From the IMG/VR virus record IMGVR_UViG_2534682325_000029: DNA of 19,196 nt. One strand, given 5' to 3'. How positions within the stretch are numbered: the stretch's first letter is position 1; each line of letters starts with the position of its first letter. The position numbers were made by a program, and so were the translations under genes. The notes beneath the pieces were generated by a model. It was not told the origin of the DNA. It searched no databases and saw only the letters and a program-made list of their open reading frames with translations. The stretch is from a virus (lineage: Duplodnaviria; Heunggongvirae; Uroviricota; Caudoviricetes). This document shows positions 1 to 6,524 of this stretch, one piece after another.

Positions 1-1023
1 TTACTTGGAATATTTTCTTGGAATATTTTCAGGTAACGGGACATCAAGTGTTGGTGAAACTTTAACCTTCCTGTCATAGATTAGCACTTGCCCTTCGGTT
101 TTGTGACCAGAGAAAAGTTGCTTATCCCGGCTGCTTCCTTCATAGTCTGAAATTCCTTTCGCCTTCAGATCATGAAAGGTGAAGTCGGTTAAAATACCTG
201 AAATTTTGCCTGCGTGATTTCTTGCTTCTACCCACATTTCGTTAAAGCCTTTGTACATATATCGGTTGCCGTATTGATTGCTGATTACATAGGCGGATGT
301 TGGTAACTGTTTTGCTTTTTCGATCGCCGCCTGTAATCGTGGACTCCATGCTTTTATCTGTTTTTTCCCTGTTTTCCCTTGCTGGATAAAGATCCCGTCG
401 TTTCCAATCTGCTCCCATTTCAGCGATAACACATCGGAAACCCTCGCTGCACACAGATAGGCAATTTCCATTGCGATAAAAACAGGAAGAGGTGCAACGC
501 TTAATACTGCCTGGTATTCTTTGTCGGTTACATATCGTTCGCGGTTTTTGGCCTTGAATTTACTTACACCTGCACATGGGTTAGCCTTCACGTATCCTCG
601 CTCATACCCCCAACTATAAACGCGCGACATACTGCTTTTTTCATGGTTTGCCTGCGTTTTACTCTGCTCGCCTCTTTTGTCCATGTATCGTCTGATGTGC
701 TCTGGTTTTACAGAATCGGCCAGCACCTTACCGAATACGGCCAGCAGCTTTTTTTGATGTTGCAGATAATCTTTTTGAGTTCTAGGACTAAGCTCGCTGT
801 AATAGGCGCTGGCGAGAAATTTTTCCCACAAACGCCCAAATGTCATTGCGCGATCGCGATGGTTAACCGTTTCTTCATACTTTTTCCATAATGCGGCTAA
901 ACCATCCTCGATTGCAGTTAAGGTTACAGATTCTCTGGATGTCGGTTTCCATACACTATATTTATTGGGGTATACCTTTGGCGGTAATTTTTCGTGTTCG
1001 GGATTTTTCCTTCGTCTTCCCAT
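1..1023 (-). CDS. int: Tyrosine recombinase, lambda-type phage integrase (340 aa)
   Basis: Full-length ORF. N-terminus MGRRRKNPEHEKLPPKVY parallels lambda Int MGRRRSHERRDLPPNLY as recalled from memory. C-terminal region carries HDLKAKG and LIYDRK consistent with the catalytic His and Tyr box. Start overlaps the upstream excisionase stop (TAATG). Confidence 0.88.
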   Translation of the reverse strand: MGRRRKNPEHEKLPPKVYPNKYSVWKPTSRESVTLTAIEDGLAALWKKYEETVNHRDRAMTFGRLWEKFLASAYYSELSPRTQKDYLQHQKKLLAVFGKVLADSVKPEHIRRYMDKRGEQSKTQANHEKSSMSRVYSWGYERGYVKANPCAGVSKFKAKNRERYVTDKEYQAVLSVAPLPVFIAMEIAYLCAARVSDVLSLKWEQIGNDGIFIQQGKTGKKQIKAWSPRLQAAIEKAKQLPTSAYVISNQYGNRYMYKGFNEMWVEARNHAGKISGILTDFTFHDLKAKGISDYEGSSRDKQLFSGHKTEGQVLIYDRKVKVSPTLDVPLPENIPRKYSK

Positions 1024-3851: not shown

Positions 3852-4040
3852 TTATCCAGCCGGTGTTTCGTTATTCAGGTACAGCGATACTTTTTTTACC
3901 GGTAGGCATTCACCAGAAATTTTTTGCTCGTCTCTTGCCTGGAGGCAGGATTCTTTACTGGCATAAATTCCGGTAATAACATTCTGTGATTCACCCGTTA
4001 TAAGAAAAACCGTCATCACCAGTGCAAATGCTGAAGTCAT
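3852..4040 (-). CDS. YdfD-like small protein with N-terminal hydrophobic segment (62 aa)
   Basis: ORF directly downstream of the dicB-like gene with a 4-nt stop/start overlap, mirroring dicB-ydfD order in the Qin prophage. N-terminal MTSAFALVMTVFLITG is hydrophobic. Confidence 0.5.
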   Translation of the reverse strand: MTSAFALVMTVFLITGESQNVITGIYASKESCLQARDEQKISGECLPVKKVSLYLNNETPAG

Positions 4041-4225
4041 TGACGTTCTCCGAAAATACCAAGTTTAATAAGGGCAATTCGGGAAAGAATGGAATTATCA
4101 TTGAGCAGATAAGGCTCATATTTCCGCATATTAATGGCATCCTCAGTAAACGCTTTATTACTGAGCAGAACACCAATATCAAAACAACCTTCAGACGTAT
4201 TAACGTTTGGTAATAACGTTTCCAT
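4037..4225 (-). CDS. dicB: DicB-like cell-division inhibitor (62 aa)
   Basis: N-terminus METLLPNVNTSEGCFDIGV...FTEDAIN closely matches E. coli DicB (METLLPNVNTSEGCFEIGV...FTEDAIN, recalled from memory). Same length as DicB. A DicF-like sRNA lies upstream as in the dicB operon. Confidence 0.75.
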   Translation of the reverse strand: METLLPNVNTSEGCFDIGVLLSNKAFTEDAINMRKYEPYLLNDNSILSRIALIKLGIFGERQ

Positions 4226-4403
4226 TATCGCGTCCTCAACAATGAATTTTGTGATGCAGTGCCTGGTGCCTCCAGGTGACGTTAACCAGTTAACAATTAA
4301 CGTCGGGTTAGTTGATGCTCGTTACGCCAGTAAAAGACCGCCTTACTGCTTTAACTGTTCCGCGTGCGCATAGCCGCATTCACCGCATCACAAAATTCAC
4401 TTT

Positions 4404-4705: not shown

Positions 4706-4858
4706 TCAGTTAGCGTTTCTTGCTAACCAGCGATGCGCGCCAGCTTCGGTTTTAAACGTTTTACTTCTGGTATACGTCATCGCGGTAAACGTGCCGTCGT
4801 GGTTGGGGAATACTCCGCACACCAGAGATTCATTGTTGCCAAGATTGAGCATATCCAT
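4706..4858 (-). CDS. YdfA-like small protein (50 aa, below the ORF-track size cutoff)
   Basis: Hand-translated minus-strand ORF MDMLNLGNNESLVCGVFPNHDGTFTAMTYTRSKTFKTEAGAHRWLARNAN, preceded by SD GAGGT. First gene downstream of the putative PL promoter, matching ydfA position in the Qin dicB operon. Confidence 0.45.
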   Translation of the reverse strand: MDMLNLGNNESLVCGVFPNHDGTFTAMTYTRSKTFKTEAGAHRWLARNAN

Positions 4859-5038
4859 GTTGACCTCATTTACCCTTAACGCCGGGTCGCGGAACTAAAA
4901 ACCTGCTGCGCTGTTATACAAAGTGTTCCCGCCGTCATGTTCATACGCCTCGGGCTGGCTACTTAACCCCTGACCACTGCCGGGTAACTCGAGGTATTGC
5001 CCGACGTTCTGTGGGGCGAGGTAGGGTGGTATGTAATA

Positions 5039-5083
5039 AATCTAAAAGTATTTAGTTTTTCAGTCAAGGTAAATCTAGATTAA
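5039..5083 (-). promoter_or_regulatory. Putative OL/PL: leftward promoter (-35 TTGACT, 17-bp spacer, -10 TAGATT on minus strand) overlapping operator-like AATCTA/TAGATT palindromes
   Basis: Minus strand reads TTGACT (plus 5062-5067) then 17 nt then TAGATT (plus 5039-5044). Operator-like sites AATCTAAAAGTATTTAG (5039-5055) and perfect palindrome AATCTAGATT (5072-5081) overlap it. Confidence 0.45.
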
Positions 5084-5086
5084 TTT

Positions 5087-5112
5087 AAAAAAAAGGTCGG
5101 CATTGCCGACCT
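5087..5112 (-). terminator. Rho-independent terminator downstream of the cI-like gene
   Basis: Minus strand reads AGGTCGGC-AAT-GCCGACC followed by T8: a GC-rich hairpin plus U-tract located 21 nt after the cI stop. Confidence 0.6.
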
Positions 5113-5132
5113 CAAGTAAAGGACGTGGCGGG

Positions 5133-5780
5133 TTATAAGTTGAACTGTACACCTTTTGCTACGGCAACAATTTTACACTCTGGTGTAAGTAAGGATGACT
5201 GATAGCGTGGATTGAGAGGGCTTAAATACACAAGCTTCCCATCAATAACTAATTTCTTTATAGTCATAGATGGTTCATTTTTAAGCGGATCCGGAACTAT
5301 TACAGCGACGATGCTGCCATTTTTATAACTTTCTCCTGGCCTTAGGATCACAGTAGCACCAACTGGGATACTCGGTGATCCTGATGGGTTATGCATTGTG
5401 TCATCAGGCATTGAAACGGCAAAATCACCTTCCTCGACATCAAAGAATGTGGTGATTCTATCGACATTTCCCATTGTTTTCTCTCCTTTTAAGATTAGGA
5501 AAGAAATCGCCTCACCCCACGAAAGGTAGGGGATCTTGGTGCCTGAGGTACTTTGTACAAAAGATAATTCAGGAGACGATACTCCATATAGGAGATAGGA
5601 CTCAGTAGTTCCTAATGCCTGGGCTAACTTACTTAGAGCTTTGCTACCTGGTTCGTTTAGATCTTTCTCCCAGTACCCTATAGTAACCCCAGTCACGCCT
5701 GAAAGCTTACCCAGTTCTACTTGGGTCAGCCCCTTATCTTTTCTAAGTCTCTTAAGCCTGAAGCCAAGGCTTTCCATCAT
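5133..5780 (-). CDS. CI-type prophage repressor: N-terminal HTH (XRE family) plus C-terminal LexA/S24 peptidase-like domain
   Basis: N-terminal GLTQVELGKLSGVTGVTIGYWEKDLNEPGSKALSKLAQALG is an HTH_XRE signature. C-terminal ~120 aa has the size and layout of an S24 autocleavage domain. Start taken at the ATG ATG pair preceded by AGGAGA; the ORF-track start at 5792 is a TTG. Confidence 0.82.
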   Translation of the reverse strand: MMESLGFRLKRLRKDKGLTQVELGKLSGVTGVTIGYWEKDLNEPGSKALSKLAQALGTTESYLLYGVSSPELSFVQSTSGTKIPYLSWGEAISFLILKGEKTMGNVDRITTFFDVEEGDFAVSMPDDTMHNPSGSPSIPVGATVILRPGESYKNGSIVAVIVPDPLKNEPSMTIKKLVIDGKLVYLSPLNPRYQSSLLTPECKIVAVAKGVQFNL

Positions 5781-5874
5781 TTTCTCCTGCAAATTGAATA
5801 TAAATTATTTTAGATTGCATTGACCTAAAAAAAATTATCTTGTAATCTAAAAATACTTAGATTTGGGAGGTAAA
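5781..5874. promoter_or_regulatory. Putative OR region with divergent PRM/PR promoters and operator palindrome AATCTAA-N6-TTAGATT
   Basis: Intergenic region between divergent cI-like and cro-like genes. Contains TTGACC at 5820-5825, an A/T-rich -10 region, palindrome AATCTAAAAATACTTAGATT (5844-5863) and an extra TAGATT half-site at 5811-5816. Half-sites match those in the OL region. Confidence 0.5.
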
Positions 5875-6102
5875 ATGCGAGTTGATGAACTTGTCCAGTT
5901 TTTTGGTTCTGTTCAGAGGGTTGCCGATTTTTATGGGATAACCCGCGAAGCTATTTACATGTGGCGTAAGCGTCCTGGTGAAATAGTTCCGAAGGGGAGG
6001 GCTGCGGAAGCTGCTGCATACTCCAAGGGGAAATTATCTTTGAACCCAGAACTTTACAAAAAGAAGGATACCACTCAGGGCGAAGGAAAGGGGGATTCAT
6101 GA
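5875..6102 (+). CDS. Cro-like small HTH regulator (75 aa)
   Basis: Divergent from cI across the operator region. Strong SD GGAGG 4 nt upstream of ATG 5875; the ORF-track start at 5863 is a TTG. Size and basic C-terminal tail resemble lambda Cro. Stop overlaps the next gene start (ATGA). Confidence 0.65.
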   Translation: MRVDELVQFFGSVQRVADFYGITREAIYMWRKRPGEIVPKGRAAEAAAYSKGKLSLNPELYKKKDTTQGEGKGDS

Positions 6103-6524
6103 AAATCAAACATGAGCACATCCGCATGGCGATCAATGCCTGGGCCTATCCGGACGGTGAGAAAGTTCCTGCAGCTGAAATAGCCCGGACTTATTTCGAG
6201 CTGGGGATGACGTTCCCGGAACTGTACGACGACAGCCATCCGGAAGCCCTGGCTCGTAATACCCAGAAAATTTTCCGTTGGCTGGATAAAGACACCCCTG
6301 ATGCTGTTGAAAAAATTCAGGCTCTGTTACCGGCGATCGAAAAGGCAATGCCGCCTCTGCTGGTGGCCCGTATGCGCAGTCACAGCTCTGAATATTACCG
6401 TGAGATCGTCGAACGGAGGGATCGGCTGGTGAAAGATGTGGATGATTTTGTCGCAGCGGCGATCGCCTGGGGCACCCTGACTAACAGTGGTGGTCAGCCT
6501 GGTAATGCTGTTGTCGTGCATTGA
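6099..6524 (+). CDS. CII-like / YdaT-like early regulatory protein (141 aa)
   Basis: Positioned where lambdoid phages carry cII, coupled to cro by ATGA overlap, with SD AAGGGGG. N-terminus MKIKHEHI resembles Rac YdaT as recalled from memory; the family assignment needs a search. Confidence 0.5.
   Translation: MKIKHEHIRMAINAWAYPDGEKVPAAEIARTYFELGMTFPELYDDSHPEALARNTQKIFRWLDKDTPDAVEKIQALLPAIEKAMPPLLVARMRSHSSEYYREIVERRDRLVKDVDDFVAAAIAWGTLTNSGGQPGNAVVVH

Follow-up and report, generated by a model that had tools for sequence, protein, structure and literature searches.

A predicted P22-type immunity region with five operators in prophage Sp14 of Escherichia coli O157:H7, and its repressor with an altered S24 domain

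Introduction

The closest described model for the immunity region considered here is immC of phage P22, whose repressor recognizes an 18-bp operator with the consensus ATTTAAGATATCTTAAAT (PMC5175364) and contacts positions 2-7 and 12-17 of it, not the central four bases (PMC4267663). A change of T·A to C·G at position 3 (and 16) lowers repressor affinity at least 16-fold, to the level of non-specific binding (PMC4267663). Actual sites of the P22 type were read from the record of phage ES18, which annotates P22-type right operators OR1-3 and left operators OL1-3; in that phage OR3 is AGTTAAGTCATCTTAAAT, OR2 is ACTAAAGATTCCTTTAGT and OR1 is ATTTAAGTGTTCTTTAAT. The region under study comprises a cI/C2-like repressor gene, a divergent cro-like gene and the intergenic DNA on both sides of the repressor gene. 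It lies in a stretch of 19,196 nucleotides of tailed-phage DNA (Caudoviricetes, IMG/VR record IMGVR_UViG_2534682325_000029; the whole stretch is hereafter called the window, and positions are counted from its first letter), which is prophage Sp14 (CP-933U, at serU) of Escherichia coli O157:H7, a lambdoid prophage of the Rac/Qin-like kind.

The prophages Rac (RacR/YdaS/YdaT), CP-933P (PaaR2/YdaS/YdaT) and Qin (DicA/DicC) have the same type of backbone as Sp14, with a YdaT-family gene after cro and a leftward operon containing a DUF1391 gene and dicB, the leader of which is common to thousands of Rac-like prophages (for their switches see PMC8630535; PMC9986795; PMC10448788). Their repressors RacR, PaaR2 and DicA are nonetheless short helix-turn-helix (HTH) proteins without an S24 domain, and GfoR and GftR of the Gifsy prophages belong, like the DicA class, to the short repressors lacking a peptidase domain, whereas the Sp14 repressor has 214 amino acids (aa) and an S24-like domain. 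DicA is relieved by the antirepressor Rem, of which no homologue was found in the window or in Sp14. A preliminary description of the window had proposed a lambda-like immunity region with its own operator sequence and a RecA-inducible repressor, and the present analysis re-examines that proposal against related loci.

Operator sites and promoters

We consider it likely that the region is an ordinary lysis/lysogeny switch on the plan of P22 immC, with five operators of 18-20 bp, and that its repressor is probably blind to SOS signals. The predicted functional unit is the dyad (A)ATCTAA-N6-TTAGAT(T), two half-sites 6 bp apart, of which five copies flank the repressor gene. Candidate sites were ranked with a symmetrized weight matrix built from the sites of relatives only (about 28 related loci), without the window or its copies of 92% identity; the matrix consensus is AATCTAAGTTAACTTAGATT, and the five best 20-mers of the 19-kb window, starting at 5844, 5797, 5039, 5822 and 5072, are the following:

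5797..5816, OR3, AATATAAATTATTTTAGATT: one mismatch to the 20-bp pattern AATCTAA-N6-TTAGATT; 25.2 bits, second in the window
5822..5841, OR2, GACCTAAAAAAAATTATCTT: 15.7 bits, fourth in the window; overlaps the -35 and spacer of the rightward promoter PR
5844..5863, OR1, AATCTAAAAATACTTAGATT: no mismatch, perfect 7-bp arms; 25.5 bits, best in the window
5039..5058, OL1, AATCTAAAAGTATTTAGTTT: one mismatch; 20.2 bits, third in the window; same position in relatives
5072..5091, OL2 (probable, weak), AATCTAGATTAATTTAAAAA: 9.4 bits, fifth in the window; a repeat of OL1 and OR1 (repeat family D1)

The next independent match in the window reaches only 5.1 bits. Among the relatives, 83 matches of at least 12 bits fall in 7.9 kb of repressor-flanking intergenic DNA, as against two in 90 kb elsewhere. 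The top ranking of these dyads by a matrix to which the window did not contribute sustains the initial reading of AATCTA/TAGATT as an operator half-site, and all four strings quoted in the preliminary description are present where they had been placed, namely AATCTAAAAGTATTTAG at 5039-5055, AATCTAGATT at 5072-5081, TAGATT at 5811-5816 and the string at OR1.

The hexamers AATCTA and TAGATT are not enriched over the window as a whole (10 observed vs. 7.0 expected), yet six of the 10 copies stand in the two AT-rich intergenic stretches, which together measure 153 nt at 21% GC. When these 153 nt were shuffled at local composition the mean expectation was 0.30 copies, and none of 20000 shuffles reached six. 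The 20-bp pattern, allowing one mismatch, occurs three times (5844, 5797 and 5039), always in these two stretches, and was absent from 200 shuffles; in the 44 kb of Sp14 no further operator site was found at up to two mismatches.

The promoters and the terminator that lie among these sites are placed as follows:

5067..5039, minus strand, leftward promoter PL: -35 TTGACT (5067..5062), 17-bp spacer, -10 TAGATT (5044..5039); 9 of 12 matches in the promoter scan; predicted start at about 5032
5820..5848, plus strand, rightward promoter PR: -35 TTGACC (5820-5825), 17-bp spacer, -10 TAATCT (5843-5848); read from the sequence; predicted start at about 5855
5093..5113, minus strand, intrinsic terminator of the repressor gene: stem of 9 bp, 6 of them GC pairs, with a T run after it; RNA fold of -15 kcal/mol, z = -3.3

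The scan call at 5067..5039 upholds the leftward promoter of the initial account. The left half-site of OL1, read on the minus strand, is the PL -10, and a -35 TTGAC[ACT] with a -10 TAGATT recurs in the leftward promoters of the relatives, so that throughout the family OL1 would supply the PL -10 with its outer half-site. Given the symmetry with PL, a plausible -10 candidate for the repressor maintenance promoter PRM is TATATT (5802..5797), the leftward reading of the outer half of OR3. OR1 covers the PR -10 and start site and is conserved in relatives, in which the PR -35 TTGA[CT] is invariant and the -10 reads TAATAT. TAATCT is shared by Sp14, its E. coli alleles and one further locus (L005), while TAATAT is found at equal OR1 spacing in a Salmonella locus (L004) and with OR1 shifted downstream by one base in more distant relatives; the PR of Sp14 may be weaker. 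The Qin promoter dicBp showed no homology to the PL region, and the YdaT-type site TTGATT-N6-AATCAA gave matches at chance level only.

On the left side the preliminary description had both of its elements overlapping PL. AATCTAAAAGTATTTAG does overlap the -10; the 10-bp palindrome AATCTAGATT lies 4 nt upstream of the -35 and overlaps neither hexamer. Nor does the palindrome hold as a unit: it is composed of the left half of OL2 plus spacer bases and is missing from distant relatives and from three other E. coli alleles, which read AATCTAAATT or AATATAAATA at its position, and therefore it reflects a single A-to-G change specific to Sp14. The proposed OL2 lies immediately upstream of the PL -35, where relatives have AATCTAAATTAATTTAAAAA or AAACTAAAATAATTTAAAAA. 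Another placement, at 5062-5081, ending on the palindrome and 23 bp from OL1, was rejected, as it scores 0.1 bits and is not conserved. Neither the stretch from OL2 to the terminator nor the DNA downstream of PL showed a third OL site in the matrix scan. Two strong sites resembling operators (24 and 29 bits) are found in Xenorhabdus santafensis (L017, 2920-2975) about 800 nt downstream of the repressor gene and are probably OL displaced by an inserted gene. On the right side, the OR1 string had been noted, as had an "extra" TAGATT between the divergent starts; the latter exists, but as the right half of the complete site OR3, and OR2, over the PR -35, had been missed.

The arrangement is shared by many relatives of the repressor, encoded at no fewer than 28 loci (34-96% identity) in genera that include Salmonella, Yersinia, Symbiopectobacterium, Arsenophonus, Xenorhabdus, Proteus, Rouxiella, Rahnella, Kosakonia, Enterobacter and Serratia. 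With the -35 TTGA[CT] as anchor, the repressor-cro intergenic regions of 26 relatives can be aligned nearly gap-free and show three dyads in fixed register: OR3 keeps its position in all 26, and a dyad in the register of OR2 is present in every relative. Downstream of the repressor gene the order is OL1, leftward -35, OL2. In four E. coli alleles OR is nearly invariant while its flanks vary, and OR3 is unchanged. Canonical relatives of 208-210 aa (from Salmonella, Klebsiella, Citrobacter, E. coli and other genera; 40-48% identity) show the same ATCTAA-N6-TTAGAT core, the same three-site OR and the same OL1/-35/OL2 layout as Sp14. In many of them (L023, L027, L028, L030, L031, L039) OR2 is an ACCAA-N7-TTGGT dyad with 17-bp symmetry in place of CTAA-N6-TTAG, which could be a deliberately weak OR2 or the site of a second protein.

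Comparison with P22, lambda and other phages

The likeness to P22 extends from the proteins to the register of the operators. Both systems have a repressor and a cro gene in divergent orientation, a repressor with an N-terminal HTH_3 and a C-terminal S24-type domain, a product of the Pfam family P22_Cro, and 18-bp dyad operators with an AT-rich centre. The right operators start 25 and 22 bp apart in Sp14 vs. 25 and 23 bp in P22/ES18. In both, the -35 TTGAC (TTGACT in ES18) runs into the left end of OR2 with identical register and OR1 is found downstream of the -10; at PL, OL1 occupies the spacer and -10, and OL2 is upstream of the -35. The operator sequence is nevertheless distinct, with the half-site ATCTAA(G) in Sp14 against ATTTAAG in P22. 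The Sp14-family consensus ATCTAAGTTAACTTAGAT is the P22 consensus with exactly the 3C/16G change, the Sp14 operators having C at position 3 (A in OR3) and G at position 16, and the P22 pattern ATTTAAG-N4-CTTAAAT is not found in them. P22/ES18 operators score at most 6.7 bits with the Sp14-family matrix, and the recognition-helix residues Asn32, Ser36 and Gln37 of P22 are Gly, Gly and Tyr in the Sp14 repressor. Since the 3C change is published to abolish specific binding by P22 repressor, the Sp14 module is predicted to be a P22-type switch with an immunity specificity of its own, heteroimmune to P22, and a single base per half-site would set apart a separate and widespread immunity family. Further differences are that P22 has OL1-3 while only two OL sites are visible in Sp14, that a YdaT-family protein takes the place of P22 C1/cII, that no antiterminator gene of the N/gene-24 type was seen adjoining Sp14 PL, and that the S24 domain of Sp14 lacks the Ser and the Ala-Gly bond.

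With lambda the region shares the tripartite OR between divergent genes, an OL beyond the repressor gene and a homologous cI C-terminal domain. Lambda operators, on the other hand, are 17 bp long, unrelated in sequence and score at most 2 bits with the family matrix, lambda OR1 lies between the -35 and the -10, and lambda cI has the Ala111-Gly112 bond and Ser149. The lambda-like arrangement of the preliminary description is thus right in its overall logic, with P22 immC as the closer model. The closest named phage repressor is that of mEp390 (36% identity), which has sites of the GTAGG-N4-CCTAC type, unlike Sp14. An immunity specificity defined by a distinct operator sequence had also been proposed, and the comparison of half-sites agrees with it, the Sp14 operators differing from those of lambda, 434, P22 and mEp390.

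In the working of the switch that we propose, dimers of the 214-aa repressor would bind the ATCTAA-N6-TTAGAT dyads through a P22-C2-like HTH domain. Occupied OR2 and OR1 would cover the -35/spacer and the -10/start of PR, and OR3 the -10 of the leftward maintenance promoter; the centre of OR2 would fall near -41.5 of PRM, the position that lambda-type repressors use for activating their own promoter. Just beyond the terminator of the repressor gene, OL1 and OL2 would bracket the -35 of PL, which is predicted to drive the operon running from the DUF1391 gene through dicB to the exonuclease gene. Cro, of the P22_Cro family, is expected to act on the same sites. The five sites and three promoters amount to a testable operator map for the immunity module of Sp14/CP-933U, a prophage that carries the type III effectors EspJ and TccP/EspFu.

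The repressor and its S24 domain

The two genes on which the switch is centred are:

5133..5777, minus strand, cI/C2-like repressor gene, 214 aa from MESLG: Pfam HTH_3 and Peptidase_S24 (E=5e-11)
5875..6102, plus strand, cro-like gene, 75 aa: Pfam P22_Cro, 38.3 bits (cutoff 30.2)

They are divergent, with 97 bp between them, and these domains together with both operator sets bear out the order OL, repressor, OR and cro of the preliminary description. The start at 5777 agrees with the database annotation and with all homologues, another in-frame ATG being present at 5780. The cro-like product, preceded by the Shine-Dalgarno sequence GGGAGG at 5865-5870, is 24% identical to ES18/P22 Cro (E=6e-6), and the repressor is 31% identical to ES18 gp55, a P22-type C2 (BLASTP, E=9e-27). 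The best solved-structure matches of its N-terminal domain are to the DNA-binding domain of P22 C2 (1adr, 2r1j, 3jxb; E=3e-7), and those of its C-terminal domain are to the C-terminal domain of lambda cI. In an AlphaFold model the latter domain superposes on lambda cI 1f39 with a template modelling (TM) score of 0.87 and a root-mean-square deviation of 1.7 Å; the model, with a mean predicted local distance difference test (pLDDT) value of 67 overall and about 80 in the C-terminal domain, served only to confirm the C-terminal fold, as pLDDT is below 50 at residues 23-46, where the P22 C2 alignment puts the recognition helix.

The fold is retained, and the residues on which autocleavage depends in lambda cI and LexA are partly changed. 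At the scissile position (lambda Ala111-Gly112) the Sp14 repressor has Ala-Ile, in the context WGEAISF vs. HVQAGMF in lambda and WVQAGQF in relatives. The nucleophile position (Ser149 in lambda cI, Ser119 in LexA) is Thr in DDTM, against G[DN]SM in lambda and in the canonical relatives, which unlike Sp14 keep VQAG and GDSM. The general-base Lys (Lys192 in lambda cI, Lys156 in LexA) is retained, IKKL aligning with lambda FKKL. As Thr replaces the nucleophilic Ser and Ile replaces the Gly of the scissile bond, the repressor is probably not inactivated by RecA-stimulated autocleavage. LexA is non-cleavable with Ala in place of the Ser or Asp in place of the scissile Gly (PMC11787620), and in experiments with strain Sakai Sp14 showed no autonomous induction by mitomycin C (PMC2669165), which is consistent with an SOS-blind repressor and is not proof of it. 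The earlier statement that an S24-type repressor implies RecA-dependent induction is not supported, given both replacements and this behaviour of the prophage; the annotation "Peptidase_S24" by itself does not predict SOS inducibility.

The replacements mark out a clade. Among 30 related loci scored for these residues, all relatives with at least 50% identity carry both substitutions, the residue after the bond being I, M, T or V; the Xenorhabdus relatives are intermediate, with Ala-Leu and the Ser retained; and all relatives at 34-48% identity retain the catalytic Ser, with Ala-Gly in all but Proteus penneri (VQAD). Across 120 cluster representatives, Thr goes with a non-Gly residue after the scissile bond in 11 of 11 and Ser with Gly in 106 of 107. 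DDTM and the Lys are invariant in the clade at 50% identity and above, which spans at least seven genera; repressors of the Thr type were found in E. coli, Salmonella, Yersinia, Symbiopectobacterium, Sodalis, Arsenophonus and Phlomobacter. Among 1.84 billion representatives searched there were other HTH-S24 lineages with Thr or Ala at the nucleophile position (only this column was used for distant representatives at 30-35% identity, where pairwise alignment makes the cleavage-site column unreliable); degenerate S24 domains therefore recur, and the novelty of the present one is the smaller for it. It seems to us slightly more probable than its contrary that these full-length P22-C2-like repressors form a clade in which the S24 domain has changed as a unit, Thr gained and Gly lost while the Lys and the pocket stay invariant, and that they are either SOS-blind pseudo-peptidases with a pocket serving another signal (an antirepressor, a ligand or oligomerization) or the first Thr-Lys autoproteases of the LexA family. 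If this were true, an effector-carrying prophage would not be induced along the textbook route but in some other way. The Sp14 switch is otherwise an uncharacterized example of a well-known type, and this clade is its only mildly surprising element.

Alternative explanations

Several points weigh against the account preferred here, that of five operators and a probably SOS-blind repressor. The column-conservation profile of OR (25 distinct sequences) shows the entire region conserved, so that the operator is not separable from promoter and spacer columns. The PR -10 TAATCT matches the consensus at only three of six positions and falls below the threshold of the promoter scan, the PRM assignment is one of geometry alone, OL2 is weak at 9.4 bits and runs with its right half into the U-tract of the repressor-gene terminator, and relative site affinities are not readable from the sequence. 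A literature search returned nothing on these operators or on the phage records ON470583 and ON470580, and no binding, footprint or start-site data for the module. As regards the repressor, the invariance of DDTM and the Lys suggests that the pocket may still have some function, and Thr could in principle act as a nucleophile. The lack of induction of Sp14 could stem from a defective excisionase or from other defects; Asadulghani et al. scored the repressor as intact, with a peptidase domain, and suspected that the excisionase is defective (PMC2669165).

That the motifs are not operators at all but repeated AT-rich promoter, UP-element or nucleoid-protein (H-NS/IHF) sequence is hardly credible, even though the intergenic DNA has 21% GC and is conserved throughout. 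Such sequence would leave unaccounted for the dyad symmetry with its fixed 6-bp spacing, the confinement of the five copies to exactly the two repressor-flanking regions of a 44-kb prophage, the failure of local-composition shuffles to reproduce the pattern, and a register and consensus that parallel the experimentally defined P22 operators (PMC4267663). Very unlikely, too, is the model of the preliminary description taken literally, with abutting or loose half-sites including the 10-bp palindrome, two elements per side and a lambda-type repressor autocleaved with RecA. Its strings exist, Pfam does report Peptidase_S24 and a peptidase domain had been scored in the protein (PMC2669165), but it has to contend with a palindrome that is not conserved among E. 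coli alleles, the 0.1 bits of 5062-5081, a third right-hand site, and the replacement of both the scissile Gly and the catalytic Ser.

The other two rivals concern how the repressor would be inactivated. With the operator layout unchanged, an SOS-inducible repressor, in which a Thr-Lys dyad would cleave Ala-Ile/Met/Thr or another bond with RecA, appears unlikely to us. The invariant DDTM and Lys, a residue before the bond that stays Ala or Ser, and the kept S24 fold speak for it, a pattern that looks as if an active site were under purifying selection; the position following the bond nevertheless varies (I, M, T, V) as if unconstrained, and Ala at the nucleophile position in other HTH-S24 lineages indicates that pseudo-peptidases recur. 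To our knowledge, there is no member of the LexA/S24 family with a Thr nucleophile. The non-cleavable LexA mutants (PMC11787620) and the lack of autonomous mitomycin C induction of Sp14 (PMC2669165) tell against this rival as well. Doubtful, though deserving of some weight, is the possibility that an antirepressor encoded in Sp14 or in another O157 prophage inactivates the repressor, as happens with the Gifsy repressors and with DicA/Rem. Control of non-cleavable lambdoid repressors in this way is documented (PMC3121763; PMC10448788), O157 harbours 18 prophages (PMC2669165), and antirepressors, small and diverse, may be supplied in trans by another prophage. The documented targets, however, are short repressors without an S24 domain. 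Scans with Pfam, PHROG and PADLOC gave no match to antirepressor families among the early-region open reading frames (ORFs), and no Rem homologue stands at the equivalent hokD/DUF968 position. No LexA box with zero mismatches occurs in the window, and the search of all Sp14 gave only two CTGT-N8-ACAG matches, both inside tail genes and in a number expected by chance, so that there is no convincing LexA box in either. On balance, a P22-type switch with five operators and a probably SOS-blind repressor is the reading we prefer.

Prophage context and spread of the module

The 1251-bp stretch around the immunity region is 100% identical to E. coli O157:H7 chromosomes, where the prophage adjoins tRNA-Ser (serU) and mtfA. 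Its counterpart in strain Sakai is "prophage Sp14, lambda-like phage", named CP-933U in strain EDL933; a 67-bp OR sequence matches Sakai Sp14 exactly, and the repressor of the window has the same sequence (100% identity) as Sakai ECs_2766, which bears the annotation "phage repressor protein CI". The leftward gene order is integrase, DUF4224 gene, RecE-like exonuclease, DUF1482 gene, dicB and DUF1391 gene, followed by the leftward repressor gene; rightward come cro, the ydaT-family gene, O-like and P-like replication genes and onward. The immediate neighbours of the module are:

4037-4225, dicB, in the leftward operon, with the exonuclease gene further on
4706..4858, minus strand, DUF1391 (ydfA/ydaF-like) gene, first of the leftward operon that PL is predicted to drive: Pfam DUF1391 E=1.3e-28 and RefSeq annotation of the identical O157 locus
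6099..6524, plus strand, YdaT-family gene in the cII position: Pfam YdaT_toxin; PHROG "CII-like transcriptional activator"

Of 5426 complete E. coli genomes searched, 474 have the whole module. In thousands of E. coli genomes the match is limited either to the leftward-operon leader (window 4900 to about 5039) or to the part that begins with the ydaT gene (from about 6094), with other repressors, RacR among them, in between. Homology to prophages of other immunity ends at about 5039 and resumes at about 6094 (query position 1195 corresponding to window 6094). Because the flanks match genomes with other repressors between them, the module is an exchangeable cassette; its mosaic joints, at the PL -10 (about 5039) and at the cro stop/ydaT start (about 6094), are those that classically bound an "imm" region. 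Beside other immunity types, the 180-nt leader that separates PL from the DUF1391 gene (4859-5038) shows 85-95% conservation in over 3000 E. coli genomes.

In the gap between dicB and the DUF1391 gene, where Qin has dicF, no match to DicF was found; the gap holds a sub-threshold STnc100-like match (4248-4397, minus strand; 29 bits vs. a gathering score of 47), and a full STnc100 copy lies at 14998-15170 on the plus strand. A hok/sok type I toxin-antitoxin module occupies 10888-11212, with the sok RNA at 10888-11062 and a hokD/mokC ORF ending at 11212. Downstream of the Q antiterminator gene (13072-13767) there are three tRNA genes (13978-14224), annotated ileZ, argN and argO in Sakai. An insertion of the IS629/IS3 family (17239-18452, minus strand), with an ALIL frameshift pseudoknot (18055-18171), is placed between an ORF of 616 aa (15307-17157) and the lysis region. 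The integrase ORF (1-1023, minus strand) is intact in the window and in Sakai and is annotated as frameshifted in strain Z1615 (L001, 1077-2124), a strain in which the immunity region is otherwise the same.

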